Source: an uncultured Alphaproteobacteria bacterium
GTDB taxonomy: Bacteria; Pseudomonadota; Alphaproteobacteria; HIMB59; GCA-002718135
Assembly: GCA_902571865.1 (NCBI GenBank)
Contig: CACGDO010000002.1
Span: 54,960-118,959, forward strand
DNA length: 64,000 nucleotides
Direction: 5' to 3'
The translations under genes were made by a program, and so were the position numbers. Below, piece by piece: positions 2,638 to 56,750 of the stretch (position 1 is the stretch's first letter; each line of letters starts with the position of its first letter). The notes beneath the pieces are model-generated. The model did not search any database, was not told the origin of the DNA, and worked only from the letters and a program-made list of their open reading frames with translations.

Positions 2638-5027
2638 TAGTTTCTTATAGAAGCATCAAGCGATTTAGATATTTGGTCTATTATTTTTTGTGATAATTCT
2701 TCTATTTCTTGATCGTTGAATGTTTTGTCTTGAGGTTGCAGTAATACCCTAAAAGCAATACTTTTTTTATTTTCTGGAAGTTTATCACCATCATAAACAT
2801 CAAATATTGTTACTTTTTGAATTATATTTTTATCTATTTTTTTTACTTTTTTAATTATCTCACCAGCCTTTACTTCTTTTGGGAAAAGAAAGGCAAAGTC
2901 TCTTTCAACCATTTGATAGGGATTGTTAGTAAAACCTCCTTTTGAAAAAGATTTATTCTCTTGAAATTGTGAAATATTCTCTAAGTATATTTCAAAACCG
3001 TATACCTTGAAATTAACATCCATTGTTTTTAATAGAACTGGATGTAATTCTCCAAAATTAGCTATTTTGTTTTTACCAAGCCTCAAAGAAGATGATTTGC
3101 CAGGATGATAAATTTTACCTTCTAGTTTTTCATATAGCAAATTATCTATAGGTACATTTAAATCAGCTAAAATAGCAAATAAATCAGTTTTTATACTAAA
3201 GACATCAATATTTTTTTTATTTGATAACCAATTTTGTTCATCAGATGGGCCATAAGCTATAGCAGTGGCAACATTTTCTTGCTGGTCAGGTAGTGATTTA
3301 GAAAAATTTGGACCTACTTCAAATATTTTTGCTCTTAAATACATTCTAGATTTATTTTGATTGATTGCTTCTAATAAATTTGGAAGCGTAGATGGTCTCA
3401 TAGAATTTAAATCAGTACTTATAGGATTTTTTAAACTAATTATTTCATCTGATATAATTTTTGCATTATTTTCATCCATAAACGACCAGGTTACAACTTC
3501 AGAATATCCATTCAAAGCCATAATTTTTTTACTTTTATAAAAAGTTTTTGTTTTGGTATTTAAAATCTGCTTTTTTTCTTCTTGATTATTTACTTTTTTA
3601 AGAGGAATTTTATTATAACCATAAATTCGAATTATTTCTTCTACTATATCTGCCTCACCAACAATATCTGGTCTAAAAGTAGGGCTTTTAATTTCAAATT
3701 TTGGTTTTTTTTCATTAACAGAAAAACCAAGTGAAACTAAAATTTTTTCTTGTTCCTCAATATTTATTTCTATTCCACCAAAAGTCTTCACTTTATTTGT
3801 GTCAAACATAAATGGTTTTCTTTTTTCTATATTAATTTCTGAAGAAATGAACTCACTTACTTCTCCTCCACATAATTTCAAAATCATTTGAGTTGCAGCA
3901 TCCACACCCCAATAGATAGAATCAGTATCAATCCCTCTTTCAAAACGGTAACGTGCGTCACTTTGAAGATTTAGTTTTCTTCCAGTTTTAGTGACAGAAA
4001 CCGGATCAAATAATGCAACTTCTAGAAAGACATTTTTAGTCTCCATACTACAACCACTATCAAAACCACCCATCACACCACCAATTCCATGAAGTTTTTT
4101 TTCATCGTCAGATATTACAATCATGTCACTGTCACATTTATAATTAACTTCATTTAATGCTAAACATTCCTCATTTTTGTTAGCTAAACGCATTGTTAAA
4201 TTGCCTGAAATTTTGTCCGCATCGTAAACATGAAGTGGTCTTCCTAAGTCAAAGGTAATATAATTTGTAATGTCAACAAGAGCTGAAATGGGTCTTAATC
4301 CGATTGCAGTTAATCTATCTTTAAGCCATTTAGGGCTTTCTACATTTTTGACATTTTTAAAATATCGACCTGCTACTCCAGGACATAGATTATTATTTTG
4401 AAATTCTTTTTTCCACGTAATTGGACTTTTGAATGATTCTTTTGATTTTTTATAATTTAAGTCTTTTAATTTACCAATTCCTGCTGCTGCTAAATCTCTT
4501 GCGATACCTCTGACCGATAAACAGTCAGATCTATTTGGCGTTAAATTAATTTCAATAATAGGTTCATCTATTGCAAAAATTTTACTAAATAAATCACCAA
4601 TTTTATAATTATCTTTTACTTCAATAATTCCATCATGTTCATCAGAAATACCCATCTCTCTTTCTGAGACAAGCATTCCGCAAGACTCAACTCCTCTAAT
4701 TTTAGTTTTTTTTAAATGTAAGTCAGTTCCAGGAATATAACTACTTTCTGGCGCAAAAATTCCAAGCATGCCTTCTTTTGCATTTGGAGCACCACACACA
4801 ACTTGATAATTTCCATTTATTGTTTCAACCTGACATACTTTAAGCTTATCTGCATCTGGATGTTTTTCTGCTTTTAAAACTTTAGCTACTGTAAAATTCT
4901 TAAATATTTCTGATTTATCTTCTACACTTTCAATCTCTAAACCAATATTGGTTAAAGTATCTGTTATGGTATTTAAATTTTCAGAAGTATCTAAATGATC
5001 TTTTAGCCAGTCTAGTGTAAATTTCAT
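2637..5027 (-). CDS. pheT: phenylalanine--tRNA ligase beta subunit
   Basis: 796 aa. N-terminal tRNA-binding OB fold ([16 protein letters not shown]) with B3/4 and B5 regions. It lies directly downstream of pheS. Confidence 0.95.
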
Positions 5028-41533: not shown

Positions 41534-42523
41534 ATGATATCAAAAGGCGTTAAATCAATATTTCCAATAAAAAACCAAGAAATTTGGGATAGGTACAAAC
41601 AACATATTCAAGCCTTTTGGACAACCGAAGAAGTATCATTGCAAGATGATTTAAGAGACCTTGAAACTTTAAATGATGGTGAAAAGCATTTTATTAAGCA
41701 TGTACTTGCATATTTTGCAAACTCTGAGGCAATGATTAATGAAAACTTAGCAAGTAGATTTTACAAAGAAATCCTAATACCTGAAGCAAGATGTTTTATC
41801 TCAATACAAATGTTGAACGAATCCATTCATGCAGAAATGTACGGTCTTCAAATTGAGGCTTATGTAAAAGATGCAAAAGAAAAAGATATGCTTTTTGATG
41901 CAATTCAAAATGTACCATGTATTAATCATAAAGCACAATGGGTATCAAAATGGCTTAATGGCAGTCAAAATCTCCTAACCAGATTGATAGGTTTTGGATT
42001 AGTTGAAGGTTTGTTTTTTGCTGGCTCTTTCTGTGCCATATATTACTTTAGGAAAAGAGGGTTATTACCTGGCTTAGCCCTATCTAACGATTGGATTGCA
42101 AGAGATGAAGGAATGCACTTTAGCTTTTCATCATTAATGTTTAGGACTTTAAGAGACAAGTTTAATAATAAAACATTAACTGATGCAGATATTAGTGATT
42201 TATCCTTGATTCCTTCAGACGTACCTCAATCACAGTTTGAAGAAATTGTTAGAGAAGCAGTAGCTTTTGAAAAAGAATTTGTAAAAGATGCACTGCCAGT
42301 AGATTTAATTGGTATGAATCAAGACTTAATGTGTCAGTATATCGAAGCTGTTGCAGACAGAATTGCTGATCTATTTGAATTTGACAGAGTCTTTAAAACA
42401 GAGAATCCTTTTGATTTTATGAGAGCTTTGGATGTTCAAAATGTTACAAACTTTTTTGAAAAAAGAGTATCTGAGTATCAAAGACCTACTGATAGAGCTT
42501 TAAGTTTTGATGAAGCATTTTGA
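41534..42523 (+). CDS. nrdB: ribonucleoside-diphosphate reductase beta chain, class Ia
   Basis: 329 aa. Di-iron/tyrosyl motif ESIHAEMY, EGLFFAGSF and SNDWIARDEGMH. C-terminal tail ...LSFDEAF. Confidence 0.96.
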   Translation: MISKGVKSIFPIKNQEIWDRYKQHIQAFWTTEEVSLQDDLRDLETLNDGEKHFIKHVLAYFANSEAMINENLASRFYKEILIPEARCFISIQMLNESIHAEMYGLQIEAYVKDAKEKDMLFDAIQNVPCINHKAQWVSKWLNGSQNLLTRLIGFGLVEGLFFAGSFCAIYYFRKRGLLPGLALSNDWIARDEGMHFSFSSLMFRTLRDKFNNKTLTDADISDLSLIPSDVPQSQFEEIVREAVAFEKEFVKDALPVDLIGMNQDLMCQYIEAVADRIADLFEFDRVFKTENPFDFMRALDVQNVTNFFEKRVSEYQRPTDRALSFDEAF

Positions 42524-42762
42524 TGGAAGCAGAGATATATTCTAAAACTAATTGTGGATACTGTGATAGAGCTAAACTACGGTTAGCTAAATATAATCCA
42601 AAGATTTATATGCTTGATACAGATTATACTAGAGAAGATTTTTTTGAAAAGTTTCCAAACGCTAAAACCTTTCCTCAAATAATTTTAAATGGTGAAAAAA
42701 TTGGAGGGTATCATGAGCTTGAAAAATGGTTCGCAATGAATACCTTTGATGAAGAATTCTAA
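42523..42762 (+). CDS. glutaredoxin-like protein (probable RNR reductant)
   Basis: 79 aa from the ATG at 42523 (TGATG overlap with the nrdB stop). CGYC active site and TFPQIILNGEKIGGY glutaredoxin signature. Confidence 0.85.
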   Translation: MEAEIYSKTNCGYCDRAKLRLAKYNPKIYMLDTDYTREDFFEKFPNAKTFPQIILNGEKIGGYHELEKWFAMNTFDEEF

Positions 42763-42887
42763 ATAACCTTTTTTTTTCCTTTTCTTGTGTAAGTTTTTTT
42801 ATTTCTAACAATTCTTTGTTTATACTTAGGTAGTTTTAAATCTTGAGCAAAGGGATTTCTCTTCTTAATTTTTTTTTTTATTTCCAT
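42759..42887 (-). CDS. unlisted 42-aa highly basic small protein, ArfA-like
   Basis: ATG at 42887, TAG at 42759-42761. The translation is MEIKKKIKKRNPFAQDLKLPKYKQRIVRNKKTYTRKGKKKVI, with 18 of 42 residues K or R. It fills the polA-nrd gap and shares the CTAA stop overlap seen at other convergent pairs. It resembles the ArfA core N-x-x-x-A-x-L-x-x-P-x-F-R-Q-R-V-x-x-N-K-K-...-Y-x-R-K-G-K. Confidence 0.45.
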   Translation of the reverse strand: MEIKKKIKKRNPFAQDLKLPKYKQRIVRNKKTYTRKGKKKVI

Positions 42888-42897
42888 AAACTATGGT

Positions 42898-45639
42898 CTA
42901 ATGTGCCTGCCCCCAATGATCACCAGCACCAAAATCAACAGTGAGTGGAACTGAAAAATCTTTATATTTTAAATGTACTGACTCCATAATTGTTTTTACA
43001 TTACTTACTAAATTGTCATATTTTTTACTTTCGACTTCAAAAATTAGTTCGTCATGTACCTGTAAAAGCATTTCAGCCTCAATATTTTTAAGTTTTATTT
43101 CCTTGTGAATTTCAATCATTGCTAACTTAATAATGTCTGCTGCACTACCTTGAATTGGTGCGTTAATAGCTTGTCTTTCTGCAAAACCTCTAACAGCAAA
43201 ATTCTTATCAGCAATTCCCTTAATATTAATTTTTCTTTTAAAAATTGTTTCTACGTATTGATTTGTTTTTGCGAAATCAATTTGATGGTCCATATATTTT
43301 TTGATTTTTGGATATTTAATAAAATACTCATTTATATAATCTTTTGCTTCTGTATTGGAAATATCAAGTTGTTTAGCTAAACCGTATGGACTGATTCCAT
43401 ATAGAATACCAAAATTAATTGCTTTTGCTTTTCTTCTATAGTCATTGTTTATTTGACTATCATTTAAATTAAATATTTCCTTAGCAGTTGATGCATGAAT
43501 ATCTTCATTGTTTTTAAAAGCTTTAATGAAATTTTTATCACTAGAAATTTCTGCAGCTAATCTAAGCTCTATTTGAGAGTAATCAAAACTGACTAATTTT
43601 TTTCCTTTTCCACTAACAAAAGCTGTTCTTATTTTTTTTCCATTTTCAGTTCTAATTGGAATATTTTGAAGATTTGGATCTGTAGAACTTAATCGACCTG
43701 TTAAAGTATTAGCCAAACCAAATGATGTATGAACTCTACTTTTATCATCTGTTAATCTAAATAAAGCATCAGTATAAGTTGATTTAAGTTTTGTTAATTC
43801 CCTCCATTCAAGAACGAGATGTGCAATTTCAAATCCATCTGAGGCTAAACTATTTAAAGTTGAAGAATCAGTAGAATATGTTCCTGATTTTGTTTTTTTC
43901 CCACCAGGTATTTTAAGATTTACAAATAATATCTCTCCTAATTGTTTAGGCGAGCCAATATTGAACTCTTCTTTTGAGAGTTTATAAATATTCTTTTCAA
44001 GTATTTTACTTTCATTTTCAAATTCATTACTTAGACTTGTTAAAAACTTTTTATTCACCTCTATGCCATTTGCTTCAATTGAAGATAATACCTCTACAAG
44101 AGGCAAATCAATGTTTTGATAAACAAAATTAGCCCTTTCTTTTATTAAACGAGGATAAAGATTTTTAAAAAGCCTGAAAGTTAATAGGGAATCTTCTGCA
44201 GCATAATTAACTGCGTTATCAATAGTTACTTTATCAAAAGTAATTTCATTTTTTCCTGTACCAACAACTTCTTTGTATTTAATTGTTGTATGATTTAAAT
44301 GATTAAATGAAAGATCATCTAAGTTGTGTTTATAAATTCCATTATCAATTGAATAGGAGATTAACATTGTGTCTGCAATTGAATTAAAGGTGACTCCATA
44401 CTTATTTAAAATTCTAATATCGTATTTTATGTTTTGACCAATTTTTAAGATTGATTTGTTTTCACAGATTTTATTAATAAGATTAATTACATATTTTTCA
44501 TCTAACTGACCATTAACTCTTTTAGATCCATCTAGTGTAGTATGGTTGATTGGGATATAATAAGAAATGTCTTCATTGTAGGAAAGTGAGATACCAACTA
44601 ATTGAGCTTTTTCTATATTGAGTGAATTTGTTTCAGTATCTATTGCACATATACCTTTTTTTTCAATTTCGTTTAAAATCTTTTCAAAATTTTCCTTTGA
44701 ATTAATTAATTGGTATTTTGGTTCTATTTCTTTTTTGTGAATAATATTATTATTATCACTAGATATAAAAGAATTGGATTTTAATCTTTCAGAGGTTGAC
44801 CTAAAGCCCTGTTCTTTTAGAAATTTAAAGATGTTATTATTTTCTTTTTTTAATTCGTTATATGTTTTTATTTTCTCAATACCCTCAGGTATTTTTACAT
44901 CATTTTTTAGTGTTACAAGTTCCAAACTTAATCTGATATCATTTTCTGATTCTGTAAGAATATTTCTTCTTTTTTCTTGCTTAATTTTATCAAGATTTTT
45001 TATTAAACCGTCAATGTCGTTAAATTCATTTATTAACTGAGATGCAGTCTTAGGCCCAATACCAGGTGCACCTGGAATATTATCTACTTTGTCTCCTGTT
45101 AAAGCTTGAATAAAAATAACCTTATCTGGCTGTACACCAAACTTTTCTTCAACATCTTTGATTTCTATTTTTTTATTTTTCATTGGATCAAGCATTGTTA
45201 CATGTTTACTAACAAGCTGCATTAAATCTTTATCTGAGGAAACTATGATAGTTTCAATTTTATCTTTTTCAGCTAAGCTAACATAAGTAGCTATTAAATC
45301 ATCAGCTTCATATCCCTCAATTTCTAATTGAGGTATATTAAAACTCTTTACACACTCTCTTATTAAAGGAAATTGTGGTATCAAATCATCAGGAGCCTCA
45401 CCTCTATTAGCTTTATATTCTGGATAAATTTCATTTCTAAAATTTTCCCTTGCAGCATCAAATATCACTATCATTTTATCCTGACTGTAATCTTCTATCA
45501 GCTTAACAAGCATATTAGTAAATCCAAAAACTGCATTAATTGGTGTGCCGTCAGCACGATTCATTGGAGGAAGACCATAATAAGCCCTAAAAATATAGGC
45601 AGAACCATCAACTAGTATTAATCTACTCTTTTTATTCAT
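42898..45639 (-). CDS. polA: DNA polymerase I
   Basis: 913 aa with 5' nuclease, 3'-5' exonuclease and polymerase domains. Motifs DYSQIELR and QVHDELIFE, with the canonical ...HWGQAH C-terminus. Confidence 0.97.
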   Translation of the reverse strand: MNKKSRLILVDGSAYIFRAYYGLPPMNRADGTPINAVFGFTNMLVKLIEDYSQDKMIVIFDAARENFRNEIYPEYKANRGEAPDDLIPQFPLIRECVKSFNIPQLEIEGYEADDLIATYVSLAEKDKIETIIVSSDKDLMQLVSKHVTMLDPMKNKKIEIKDVEEKFGVQPDKVIFIQALTGDKVDNIPGAPGIGPKTASQLINEFNDIDGLIKNLDKIKQEKRRNILTESENDIRLSLELVTLKNDVKIPEGIEKIKTYNELKKENNNIFKFLKEQGFRSTSERLKSNSFISSDNNNIIHKKEIEPKYQLINSKENFEKILNEIEKKGICAIDTETNSLNIEKAQLVGISLSYNEDISYYIPINHTTLDGSKRVNGQLDEKYVINLINKICENKSILKIGQNIKYDIRILNKYGVTFNSIADTMLISYSIDNGIYKHNLDDLSFNHLNHTTIKYKEVVGTGKNEITFDKVTIDNAVNYAAEDSLLTFRLFKNLYPRLIKERANFVYQNIDLPLVEVLSSIEANGIEVNKKFLTSLSNEFENESKILEKNIYKLSKEEFNIGSPKQLGEILFVNLKIPGGKKTKSGTYSTDSSTLNSLASDGFEIAHLVLEWRELTKLKSTYTDALFRLTDDKSRVHTSFGLANTLTGRLSSTDPNLQNIPIRTENGKKIRTAFVSGKGKKLVSFDYSQIELRLAAEISSDKNFIKAFKNNEDIHASTAKEIFNLNDSQINNDYRRKAKAINFGILYGISPYGLAKQLDISNTEAKDYINEYFIKYPKIKKYMDHQIDFAKTNQYVETIFKRKINIKGIADKNFAVRGFAERQAINAPIQGSAADIIKLAMIEIHKEIKLKNIEAEMLLQVHDELIFEVESKKYDNLVSNVKTIMESVHLKYKDFSVPLTVDFGAGDHWGQAH

Positions 45640-50667: not shown

Positions 50668-54212
<3,545 letters not shown>

Positions 54213-54215
54213 ATT

Positions 54216-55331
54216 TTAAACTCTCATTGGCATTAAGACATAAACTAAATTAGTATTTGAATTTTCAAGAGCAGTAATTGGAGAAGTATTGTCTTTTAAA
54301 TTAATTGATATTTCTTCATCTTCTAAATTATTAACTATATCCATTATATATTTTGAATTGAATCCAATTTCTATATCATCACCATTATAATTTATTTTTA
54401 AATCTTCAGATGCAGTGCTACTTTCATTATTGATAGTATTTAAATTTAATACATTATTTAATAATTTAAACTTTATTACTGGTGATTTTTCATTAGCAAT
54501 TGTGCTTACCCTATCTACTGCAGAAAGTAATAATTCCCTTTTTATTTTGAGAGTATTTAAATTATCTTTAGGAATTACTCTTTTATAATCTGGAAAACTT
54601 CCATCAATTAGTTTTGATATAAATATTATATTTTGTAATACAAAAACAATTTTATTTGAGCTAATGTATATTTCTACTTCAGTGTTATTTTCTGATAATA
54701 ATTTAGAAATTTCATAAATTGTTTTTTTAGGAATAATTACACCAGATATTTGGTCAATATTTTCTTCAACCTCATAAGAAAATTTTGCCAATCGGTGACC
54801 GTCAGTACCGACTAAAGTTACCATATTTTTATTGTTTTCGCTGCTAATATTAAAATATAATCCATTGAGAAAGTATCTTGTTTCTTCATTAGAAATTGCA
54901 AACTTTGTTTTATCAATCAATTTAAATAATATATTTGAATTAATTTTAATTTTGACGCCCAAAGTGTCTTGATCAATTATTGGATAGTCCTCTTTTGGTA
55001 AACAAGCTAATGAAAACCTAGACCCATCAGCACGTAAGGTTAGTAACTTTCCATTATTTGAAATTATTTCTATTTCACTATTACCATCAATTTTTCTTAC
55101 TATATCATATAATATTTGAGAATTTATAGTAGTGGCACCTTCCTCAAATATATTACAATCAATTTTTTCAATTATAGAAATATCCATATCTGTTGATGAT
55201 AAAATCAATTGATCATTTTTTGCCTCAATTAAAATATTTGATAGAATTGGCAATGAATTTTTTTTGTCAACTATGCCTTGGAGGTGAGATAATGTTTTAA
55301 AAAAATTTGATTGTGATATTTTAAATTTCAT
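54216..55331 (-). CDS. dnaN: DNA polymerase III beta sliding clamp
   Basis: 371 aa. Three-domain clamp-length protein ending ...LMPMRV. Positioned between dnaA and recF. Confidence 0.93.
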   Translation of the reverse strand: MKFKISQSNFFKTLSHLQGIVDKKNSLPILSNILIEAKNDQLILSSTDMDISIIEKIDCNIFEEGATTINSQILYDIVRKIDGNSEIEIISNNGKLLTLRADGSRFSLACLPKEDYPIIDQDTLGVKIKINSNILFKLIDKTKFAISNEETRYFLNGLYFNISSENNKNMVTLVGTDGHRLAKFSYEVEENIDQISGVIIPKKTIYEISKLLSENNTEVEIYISSNKIVFVLQNIIFISKLIDGSFPDYKRVIPKDNLNTLKIKRELLLSAVDRVSTIANEKSPVIKFKLLNNVLNLNTINNESSTASEDLKINYNGDDIEIGFNSKYIMDIVNNLEDEEISINLKDNTSPITALENSNTNLVYVLMPMRV

Positions 55332-55355
55332 ATCATAACAATATGATAAAAATTA

Positions 55356-56750
55356 TTAAGAATCTATAAGTCTTTTTAACAATTCAAGATCTTCATTAAA
55401 GTTAACATCAGATAACTTAAGTTCTTCAATTTTTTTAACTGCATGCATTACAGTGGTGTGATCTCTACCACCAAATTTTCTTCCTATTTCTGGTAATGAT
55501 CTAGATGTAATTGATTTTGCTAAATACATAGCAATTTGTCTAGGTCTAGCTACTGATCGTGATCTTCTTGGAGAGTGCATATCTGTAATCCTGATATTAA
55601 AATGTTCAGCAACTTTCTTTTGAATTTCTTCAATAGTGATTTTTTTATTTGATGATTTTAATAAATCCTGAAGAACTAATTGAGCTGTTTCAACTGTGAT
55701 TGCAGTACCAACTAAAGTTGCATGGGCAACTAATCTATTCAATGCCCCCTCCATTTCCCTTACATTAGATATGATTCTGTGAGAAAGGAATTCTAAAACT
55801 TTTGGTGGAATCTCTACACCTCTTTTCTGAGCTTTTTCAATTAGTATACCAAGCCTTAATTCATAAGTAGTTGGGTGAATATCTGCTACAAGTCCACAAC
55901 CAAGTCTAGATTTTAATCTTTCTTGAACTCCATCAAGGTCGGTTGGAGTTTTATCAGCTGAAATTACAATTTGTTTATTCTGTTCTATTAATGCATTAAA
56001 AGTATGAAAAAATTCTTCTTGAGTATTATCTTTACCACTAATGAATTGAACATCATCAATCATTAAAACATCGATGGATCTAAACTGTTCTTTAAATGCA
56101 GACGTATCTTTGTATCTTAGTGCTCTTACAAATTGATACATAAATTTTTCTGCAGATAGATAAATAACTTTTCTTTCAGGGTTTTGTTGTTTGATCTTCC
56201 AACCAATAGCATGCATTAGATGTGTTTTGCCAAGCCCCACGCCTCCACATAAAAATAATGGATTAAATGTTATTTTATTTGCTTCTGAGACTCGCTGAGA
56301 TGCAGCAAATGCTAACTCATTTGGTTTTCCAACAACAAAATTTTCGAATGTGAATCTAGGATCAAGGGGGGCTCCAAATTCATTTGGGTATGTAGATGCC
56401 TGATTAGATCTTAGATCCATACTTGATTTCCAATGATTATCATTACTTTTGATTGTTCTAGTAGTACCAGGAACTATTCTGCCACCAGAAGGTTTTACTA
56501 CGAATTTAATAGTATCTACTTTTTCAGCTATATGCTTTGATTCTCCTTTAATCTTATCAGAGTAATTATTTACTATCCAATCTCTCAAAAATTTAGTTGG
56601 AACAGAGAAAGTTACTGTTGTTTCATGTAAGGAGACATATTTTAAATGTTTTAACCAATTATTGTAAGCTGAGTCACCAACATTTTTCTTTAAATTTTTT
56701 TTAAAAGATAACCATTTACTTTCGTCAATATTAGTAGATGTATTATCCAT
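55356..56750 (-). CDS. dnaA: chromosomal replication initiator protein DnaA
   Basis: 464 aa. AAA+ Walker A GGVGLGKTHLMHAI, and domain IV with GGRDHTTVMHA. Confidence 0.96.
   Translation of the reverse strand: MDNTSTNIDESKWLSFKKNLKKNVGDSAYNNWLKHLKYVSLHETTVTFSVPTKFLRDWIVNNYSDKIKGESKHIAEKVDTIKFVVKPSGGRIVPGTTRTIKSNDNHWKSSMDLRSNQASTYPNEFGAPLDPRFTFENFVVGKPNELAFAASQRVSEANKITFNPLFLCGGVGLGKTHLMHAIGWKIKQQNPERKVIYLSAEKFMYQFVRALRYKDTSAFKEQFRSIDVLMIDDVQFISGKDNTQEEFFHTFNALIEQNKQIVISADKTPTDLDGVQERLKSRLGCGLVADIHPTTYELRLGILIEKAQKRGVEIPPKVLEFLSHRIISNVREMEGALNRLVAHATLVGTAITVETAQLVLQDLLKSSNKKITIEEIQKKVAEHFNIRITDMHSPRRSRSVARPRQIAMYLAKSITSRSLPEIGRKFGGRDHTTVMHAVKKIEELKLSDVNFNEDLELLKRLIDS

Follow-up and report, generated by a model that had tools for sequence, protein, structure and literature searches.

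The question raised by this locus is whether a 135-bp gap between polA and a convergent glutaredoxin-like gene of a SAR11-type alphaproteobacterium holds a gene of its own, and whether the product of that gene rescues stalled ribosomes. The gap lies within a window of 64 kb (the whole stretch of DNA analysed here, with a GC content of 28.3%) and contains an open reading frame (ORF) of 42 codons on the minus strand, which an earlier note on this DNA had described as ArfA-like, very basic and minimal in form. The reading preferred here, and considered probable from the sequence comparisons given below, is that a true gene is present and that it encodes a minimal protein of the ArfA superfamily, one of a 'short-form' branch without the GKG insert.

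ArfA (YhdL in Escherichia coli; Pfam PF03889; PDB 5MDV, 5MGP, 5U4I and 5H5U) is a backup factor for the release of ribosomes that have stalled on broken mRNAs. The rescue of ribosomes is regarded as essential and, to our knowledge, the loss of trans-translation is survived only by species with ArfA, ArfB, ArfT, BrfA or RqcH. ArfA has been assigned to the Gammaproteobacteria and to part of the Betaproteobacteria (PMC4235212), and a 2024 census of 15,259 genomes recorded arfA in none of 2376 Alphaproteobacteria; in its Table S1, Ca. Pelagibacter ubique HTCC1040 is scored as positive for smpB and ssrA and as negative for arfB, arfA and rqcH (PMC11633108). In an earlier survey, ArfB was not found in the rickettsial branch of the Alphaproteobacteria (PMC4235212).

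A conserved 42-codon gene after polA

The 42-codon coding sequence and its TAG stop occupy positions 42759..42887 of the minus strand, with the ATG at 42885-42887, the polA stop 10 nt before it, and the TAG at 42759-42761. The product, MEIKKKIKKRNPFAQDLKLPKYKQRIVRNKKTYTRKGKKKVI, has 18 basic and 2 acidic residues, and 43% of it is Lys/Arg. The plus-strand tetranucleotide CTAA at 42759-42762 is common to the stops of the ORF and of the convergent glutaredoxin-like gene, which overlap by 4 nt. All coordinates given in the earlier note (minus strand, 42 codons) and the CTAA arrangement were verified. Its description of the ORF as unlisted is true of the first-stage ORF track, but public gene callers do predict it, as a 'hypothetical protein', and identical copies of the window peptide are predicted on at least 1000 public contigs.

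An open frame of this length had also been considered unlikely by chance. From base composition, 42 open codons have a chance probability of P ~0.026, and when the 135-bp gap was shuffled 5000 times, 43 of the resulting sequences contained an ATG-started ORF of at least 42 amino acids (aa); the calculation is suggestive, but not decisive by itself. The ORF is almost certainly a real gene, and the decisive evidence for this is comparative, consisting of synteny, the codon-position pattern of variation, and the ratio of nonsynonymous to synonymous polymorphism (pN/pS). A search of 5.8 billion proteins returned 77 relatives of the peptide with 64-98% identity, 54 of which are exactly 42 aa long; those that carry a name are all labelled 'hypothetical protein', and one of these is from Pelagibacteraceae. 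A scan of species-representative genomes provided 23 related loci from SAR11-type single-cell or metagenome-assembled genomes, and the order polA > ORF < grx < nrdB is found in all of them (23/23).

Among the 20 intact copies, the variable sites fall on codon positions 1/2/3 in the numbers 11/8/29, and the pooled pN/pS is 0.17 in the frame of the ORF. Four of the other frames give 0.80, 1.17, 1.03 and 2.08, and the antisense frame whose third positions coincide with those of the ORF gives 0.38. In the same set of genomes the ORF has a pN/pS of 0.19, and polA, grx and nrdB have values of 0.08, 0.06 and 0.02, respectively. The ORF is under purifying selection, which is looser than that on the neighbouring genes. 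The two checks that the earlier note had suggested at this point, for purifying selection (pN/pS of 0.17-0.19) and for a conserved position after polA, both came out positive. The near-invariant core of the SAR11 family is NP[FY]AQDLKLPKYKQRIV..KK.Y[TS]RKG.KK, and residue 2 varies freely. Homologs of the ORF are also present in GC-rich Alphaproteobacteria where the DNA is unrelated (L024, L025), and a purely nucleic-acid explanation of the conservation is thereby excluded.

Relationship to ArfA and the DUF7230 family

A positional ortholog, P0076 (MLIKKKIKKRNPYAQDLKLPKYKQRIVKPKKGKGSFKRKKLKV), is found at locus L026, where it begins 10 nt behind a polA stop (...VDYGAGDNWGQAH*). The lineage is related, AT-rich and more distant, and its downstream gene differs from that of the SAR11 loci. 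The first 27 residues of P0076 are the same as in the SAR11 family, and they are followed by the canonical KGKGS[FY] motif (as KKGKGSF). It scores 29.4 bits against PF03889 (cut-off 25.5), and among PDB entries it matches E. coli ArfA chains in ribosome structures (E=0.005-0.014).

An exhaustive HMMER search, in which a 14-sequence profile was run against 1.84 billion representatives, revealed a short, GKG-less family of 907 clusters at E<=1e-3, with the consensus K-R-N-P-i-A-k-d-L-r-t-P-k-Y-R-q-R-V-V-k-S-K-K-x-Y-s-R-K-x-K-H-K. When 116 short-form members were scanned against Pfam, 51 matched DUF7230 (E<=0.01) and 20 matched ArfA. One of the members without GKG, P0102, reaches 37.5 bits on the ArfA model, which is above threshold, and matches DUF7230 as well, while E. 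coli ArfA itself matches DUF7230 weakly (E=0.11). From these scans DUF7230 and ArfA overlap and look like one superfamily. Some GKG-less relatives already carry the JGI/IMG label 'stalled ribosome alternative rescue factor ArfA'. The peptide of L024, one of the GC-rich relatives, has a weak match to both DUF7230 and ArfA.

Profiles built from the family reach the characterised protein directly. The profile of the short-form alignment (A3) matches ArfA in the PDB with E=4.7e-9. A control profile was made from 126 short-form members, with every SAR11 and every GKG-containing sequence left out; against it, the window peptide reaches 66.4 bits and E. coli ArfA 35.4 bits (E=6.5e-8, taking a database the size of the PDB), compared with 13.6 bits for the best of 4000 composition-matched shuffles. 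In hhalign, the control profile was matched to an independently gathered enterobacterial ArfA alignment with 96.9% probability (E=1.5e-10), SAR11-only sequences were matched to the short-form family with 99.5% probability (E=2.6e-22), and the comparison of SAR11-only with an enterobacteria-only ArfA profile gave P=3.9e-5, with 45% identity over 29 columns. The alignments of HMMER and hhalign are alike: their only gap, of three residues, falls at the GKG of E. coli KKGKGSY, and they reproduce the alignment of the earlier note (N..A..L..P-aromatic-K/R-Q-R-V/I..N-K-K-gap-Y-x-R-K-G-K). Its view of an ArfA-like minimal form is borne out in that homology through the intermediate family is significant, and in that the ortholog P0076 is an ArfA of Pfam grade. 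Homology to the experimentally characterised ArfA is statistically supported at the profile level. The positional ortholog, the bridging family and the controlled profile tests are three independent lines that agree on it, and the ORF product is very probably an ArfA homolog.

A prediction by AlphaFold2 from the family alignment had a mean pLDDT (predicted local distance difference test) of 80.7, with helix at residues 12-16 and 20-22 (pLDDT ~90) and the rest extended. Foldseek against the PDB at E<=10 returned two matches only, both of them ArfA chains (5mdw_6, E=3.3, and 5mdy_6, E=9.2), and neither is significant. A predicted helix where ArfA has one, along with ArfA chains as the Foldseek matches, may be taken as weak corroboration.

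In E. coli ArfA, the stretch 15-24 is helical and lies at the decoding centre, F25 provides the hydrophobic contact that is specific to RF2, Q27-E30 extend the domain II/IV sheet of RF2 by a beta-strand, and the basic C-terminus, KH motif included, fills the empty mRNA entry channel; the protein is ordered only up to residues 46-48, and a 1-40 truncation is inactive (PMC8012679). None of the KGKGS residues is individually essential (PMC6299226). The 42 SAR11 residues align with ArfA residues 4-48, with 15 identical and 7 conservative matches, so that the SAR11 protein would essentially be the ribosome-ordered core of ArfA alone. Residues 12-21 (PFAQDLKLPK, 42825..42854, minus strand) align with the 15-24 helix, and residues 22-27 (YKQRIV, 42807..42824, minus strand) with E. 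coli F25-R26-Q27-R28-V29-E30. Y22 is invariant in the SAR11 family, and K23 and Q24 are at least 90% conserved. At the sequence level the RF2-docking segment is without gaps, Y22 and Q24-R25-I26-V27 being aligned with ArfA F25 and Q27-E30. The basic tail, residues 28-42 (RNKKTYTRKGKKKVI, 42762..42806, minus strand), aligns with E. coli K31-R48, the binder of the mRNA entry channel; R35-K36-G37-K38 match ArfA R41-K42-G43-K44, and the tail reaches the equivalent of residue 48. As far as the alignment can tell, the RF2-contact and tail motifs are retained in the SAR11 protein.

Proposed role in ribosome rescue and rival explanations

If the homology with E. coli ArfA extends to the mechanism, then at a ribosome that has reached the 3' end of a stop-less mRNA, the Lys/Arg-rich tail (28-42) of the SAR11 protein would thread into the empty 30S mRNA entry channel, residues 12-21 would form a short helix at the decoding centre, and Y22 and the strand K23-V27 would dock onto the RF2 domain II/IV beta-sheet. 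RF2 would then hydrolyse the peptidyl-tRNA with no stop codon being read. A normal mRNA, in all likelihood transcribed together with polA, would serve for expression of the gene, and there would be no gate set by transfer-messenger RNA (tmRNA) tagging. Ribosome binding, RF2 recruitment and rescue activity are ascribed to the protein because of its homology with E. coli ArfA, and we are somewhat inclined to regard it as a non-stop rescue factor that depends on a release factor.

The mRNA of enterobacterial arfA (and of brfA) is truncated at an intragenic hairpin, and the product builds up only when tmRNA is overwhelmed (PMC8012679, PMC4235212). In the SAR11 gene the stop codon comes directly after the core (residue 42), without a hydrophobic C-terminal extension. 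The RNA at the ORF is less structured than its shuffles, both over 251 nt (z=+1.85) and over the 3' 91 nt (z=+0.95), no hairpin was seen, and terminator-like sites were found on neither strand in 42300-43200. The locus of P0076 is equally unstructured (z=+1.5). The earlier note had raised RNase III-dependent, antisense-linked truncation as a speculation. The sequence gives it no support, as neither a hairpin nor anything like a terminator is seen within the ORF or downstream of it, and regulation by RNase III, by a hairpin or by antisense RNA is considered improbable and was rejected on sequence grounds.

Some relatives differ in this respect. In L024 the ORF contains a perfect GC hairpin of 8 bp immediately downstream of the core, at about 4104-4127 (z=-3.4, 0/200 shuffles), with a hydrophobic tail (...HLGLTLLNH) after it, and L028, a phage-like relative, has a long hairpin across the stop codon, at about 2620-2690 (z=-4.6, 0/200 shuffles). 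Four other relatives are without such a hairpin. The hairpins of L024 and L028 resemble the non-stop mRNA regulation of enterobacterial arfA. Since hairpins occur in these two and none in SAR11, an ArfA-style regulatory module appears to exist in parts of the short-form family, and to have been lost, or never to have been present, in SAR11. Because the SAR11 gene has its own stop codon, no extension and no hairpin, it is probably not gated by tmRNA, and its expression is probably ordinary and at a low level.

Several results weigh against a minimal ArfA that recruits RF2. The hallmark of ArfA and BrfA regulation, a non-stop mRNA produced via a hairpin or RNase III site, was not found at the locus. 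The KGKGS motif is shortened, with N-K-K-T-Y in place of E. coli N-K-K-G-K-G-S-Y (the three residues GKG being deleted), and KK stands in place of the KH motif, with K at the position of H45 (N-K in some relatives); the wider short-form family does retain K-H-K. A18 of ArfA is a small residue that permits RF2 activation, and A18T is inactive. Its equivalent here is ambiguous, as the ungapped alignment sets Q15 opposite A18, and the family-invariant A14 opposite E17; a one-residue shift in the helix register is possible. Neither prfB (RF2) nor smpB nor ssrA lies in the 64-kb window, and the pN/pS of the ORF is 2-10 times the values of the neighbouring genes. Direct searches were also negative. 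The window peptide had no match at E<=10 in Pfam, PF03889 and DUF7230 included, or to any NCBIfam model, a phmmer search of the PDB returned chance matches only (e.g., CagT, TnsC) and no ArfA chain, and a narrow SAR11 profile (A1) found nothing in the PDB, ArfA included.

The hmmscan against PF03889 that the earlier note had proposed is thus negative for the window peptide itself, and ArfA homology rests on profile-level, transitive and syntenic evidence. The gathering threshold of PF03889 (25.5 bits) was reached neither by the window peptide nor by the cluster representative P0004, which had no match, and that of DUF7230 (PF23876, 27 bits) was not reached by the window peptide, again for want of any match. 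Among the DUF7230-matching members with individually listed scores, the highest was 25.2 bits, which is under the 27-bit threshold. A word-indexed homolog search seeded with a GC-rich relative returned 3 proteins only.

The missing GKG and KH motifs and the missing non-stop regulation would also suit a real, small, basic, ribosome-binding protein of the ArfA/DUF7230 superfamily with a role other than classical RF2-dependent non-stop rescue. Like ArfT, such a protein might bring in RF1 or both release factors, or it might serve in ribosome hibernation or assembly, or in the modulation of termination. The short-form family is experimentally uncharacterised, being a DUF in Pfam that is absent from the literature searched (as DUF7230), and ArfT shows that small, tail-bearing factors can vary in their release-factor specificity (PMC6299226). 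However, the best-conserved stretch of the SAR11 protein is exactly the RF2-docking segment (Y22, K23-V27) together with the RKGK tail, and the relatives grade continuously into Pfam-grade ArfA; another role is possible, and we consider it rather unlikely.

It is very improbable that the gene is a phage remnant lodged in the chromosome with little or no role for the host, since it sits in a fixed core-genome slot between polA and nrd in 23/23 genomes with no phage genes nearby, the more distant lineage L026 keeps the same slot, the ORF is under purifying selection, and other Alphaproteobacteria have chromosomal copies with a conserved synteny of their own. This origin is nonetheless suggested by the match of the window peptide to phrog_20887 (E=1e-5), by the many short-form relatives in phage-like contigs (L027, L028/L029), and by the ArfA encoded by pelagiphage HTVC027P (PMC12753301). 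A non-coding explanation, in which a chance open frame in an AT-rich spacer is conserved for, e.g., a 3'-end or terminator function of the convergent polA and nrd transcripts, could call on the chance probability of the open frame alone (~1-3%), on the lack of a Shine-Dalgarno sequence and on the lack of a direct family match to a hidden Markov model (HMM). It is scarcely credible in view of the three-periodic substitutions and the low pN/pS, which are found in the ORF frame only, the length conserved at 42 aa, the homologs in GC-rich genomes with unrelated DNA, and an RNA that is less structured than its shuffles and has no terminator-like site. A chance ORF is ruled out by the codon-periodic substitution pattern, and is effectively refuted when the short-form family and the profile scores are added.

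The preferred reading of a minimal short-form ArfA has a wider version, in which SAR11, several other alphaproteobacterial lineages and many marine phages use a minimal, constitutively encoded ArfA without tmRNA gating; we would give this an even chance. If it is true, the most abundant bacterium of the ocean would have a means of rescue besides trans-translation, the ArfA superfamily (DUF7230 included) would be far wider than the 'Beta- and Gammaproteobacteria only' of the literature, and the SAR11 protein would be the smallest natural release-factor-recruiting rescue factor, its 42 aa being equivalent to the ribosome-ordered core of E. coli ArfA.

Known rescue factors, phage relatives and the surrounding locus

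The SAR11 protein resembles E. coli ArfA in being small and highly basic, and in the collinear motif N-x2-A-x2-L-x2-P-x-[FY]-[RK]-Q-R-[VI] ... KK ... Y-x-R-K-G-K. It differs in having 42 aa and its own stop codon, where E. coli has a 72-codon ORF truncated to ~55 aa, in the loss of GKG and the K in place of H45, and in failing the Pfam HMM. The gene is without the hydrophobic extension, intragenic hairpin and RNase III site of its E. coli counterpart, presumably lacks tmRNA control, and has polA as its genomic neighbour. The architecture K-R-N-P-x-A-x-x-L-x-x-P-K-Y-R-x-R-V-V-x-S-K-K-x-Y-[ST]-R-K is shared with DUF7230 (PF23876)/PHROG 20887, but most members of that family end in K-H-K, with variable and at times hydrophobic C-terminal extensions, some have a 3' hairpin (L024, L028), and many are phage-borne.

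Like Francisella ArfT (~40 aa), which also was annotated late, has its own stop codon and backs up trans-translation without control by mRNA truncation (PMC6299226), the SAR11 protein is very short. ArfT is distinguished by its KKGGSTNKK tail, of the KGG-repeat stress-protein family (PMC6514570), by the absence of the N..A..L..P-Y-K-Q-R-I-V core, and by its ability to use RF1 or RF2. Membership in the ArfT family was rejected, as the KKGGSTNKK/KGG-repeat motif is absent from the window peptide (in a comparison with the published motif only), and no sequence relationship was seen. Bacillus BrfA is comparable in its dependence on RF2, its addition of a beta-strand to RF2 and its basic tail (PMC8012679), but it shares only the KH motif with ArfA, which is missing in the SAR11 protein, and BrfA is made from a non-stop mRNA.

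Pelagiphage HTVC027P gp30 has been reported with PF03889 (PMC12753301). Like gp18 of HTVC115P, which has an ArfA-like N-terminal domain, it comes from the same ecosystem and host clade as the SAR11 gene, the difference being that these are phage genes, expressed during infection. HTVC115P gp18 (L034 1201-1461; MN698247.1 5463-5723) is annotated as 'hypothetical protein' and begins with MKLRNPIAKELRTPKYKSKVVENKK, which matches the SAR11 core; the ArfA-like helix and RF2-docking strand are followed by an acidic 60-residue domain that replaces the basic Y-x-RK tail. The gp18 protein could serve the phage as a decoy for, or a modulator of, RF2 or the rescue process. A tblastn search of phage records with P0076 and P0128 gave no match, for which the low-complexity filter is possibly responsible. 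Short-form genes at L027 3001-3144 and at L028/L029 2501-2671 lie amid small co-directional ORFs, a 5'-3' exonuclease gene and an SprT-like gene. Given these phage-like contexts and the phrog_20887 match, a large share of the DUF7230-type family may be phage-borne. On Methyloceanibacter-type contigs (L030-L033) the chromosomal short-form gene has a conserved neighbourhood, with divergent DUF6494 and GBBH-like genes on its upstream side and moaA directly after it, the start of which is overlapped by the short-form gene in L030.

In the literature searched there was no mention of DUF7230 or of a host-encoded ArfA in SAR11, the sole SAR11-related mention being HTVC027P gp30 (PMC12753301). The family link is not wholly new, because certain GKG-less proteins are already treated as ArfA in IMG and Pfam. 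New here are the extension of the short-form family to SAR11, where every curated HMM misses it, the recognition, from sequence, of DUF7230/phrog_20887 as the same superfamily as ArfA, and a minimal and apparently unregulated ArfA architecture. This is an extension of a known mechanism, not a new mechanism, and it is at odds with published distribution tables. A host-encoded, core-genome ArfA homolog would change the picture of ribosome rescue for the globally dominant, genome-streamlined SAR11. It would also assign a function to the uncharacterised DUF7230/phrog_20887 family of at least 900 sequence clusters, and would make a naturally minimal ArfA of 42 residues available to studies of the structure and mechanism of RF2 activation without a stop codon. 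The case further shows that surveys based on HMMs and nhmmer miss very short, lysine-rich proteins in AT-rich genomes.

Two homopolymer runs within the gene call for caution in annotation. The A11 run of codons 3-7 (42869..42879, minus strand) is the longest homopolymer in the window and is prone to length errors; the codons of K4-K6 are almost always AAA. Its position is as the earlier note gave it, and the slippage that was suggested there seems relevant only as a source of frameshifted database entries. The A9 run of codons 37-40 (42769..42777, minus strand) has A8 and A10 variants in assemblies, which lead to read-through products. A8 replaces A9 in 3/23 assemblies (L009, L014, L016), and an indel in the 5' A10/A11 run occurs in one (L017). 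Database entries of 64-74 aa are frameshifted read-throughs in both alternative frames, antisense to grx (e.g., P0005, with 40 members). In more divergent SAR11 the A9 run is broken by K38N (AAC/AAT), and so it is not a conserved slippery site. AAG accounts for 4/14 of the Lys codons of the ORF, and in seven sampled genes of the window AAA makes up 88% of Lys codons. Programmed frameshifting at the A9 or A11 run was rejected, as A9 is not conserved, both A8 and A10 occur (as for length errors), and AAG is used relatively more often. The variants probably reflect errors of length in sequencing or assembly, or else polymorphism from ordinary slippage.

The spacer of 10 nt between the polA stop and the ATG of the ORF (42888..42897, minus strand) is without a Shine-Dalgarno-like sequence, and in related loci it measures 9-10 nt (10 nt in L026). 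With such a spacer the ORF is likely to be co-transcribed and coupled with polA. The upstream same-strand neighbour and conserved syntenic anchor, polA (DNA polymerase I), lies at 42898..45639 on the minus strand, and the convergent glutaredoxin-like gene, with a CGYC motif, at 42520..42762 on the plus strand, where it is the last of the row nrdA-nrdB-grx. Its apparent TTG start overlaps the nrdB stop codon (42520-42523), which appears to be one more 4-nt gene overlap, typical for a compact genome. Rfam and ARAGORN searches of the whole window found only a tRNA-Ser at 740-829, with no tmRNA, and no known RNA near the gene. Further along the window, a minus-strand row of ORFs at 53124-56750 resembles recF-dnaN-dnaA, with gyrB (50668-53127) after it, judging from the N-terminal sequences of the ORFs alone, and because of this row a chromosomal replication origin probably lies near 56.8-57.2 kb.

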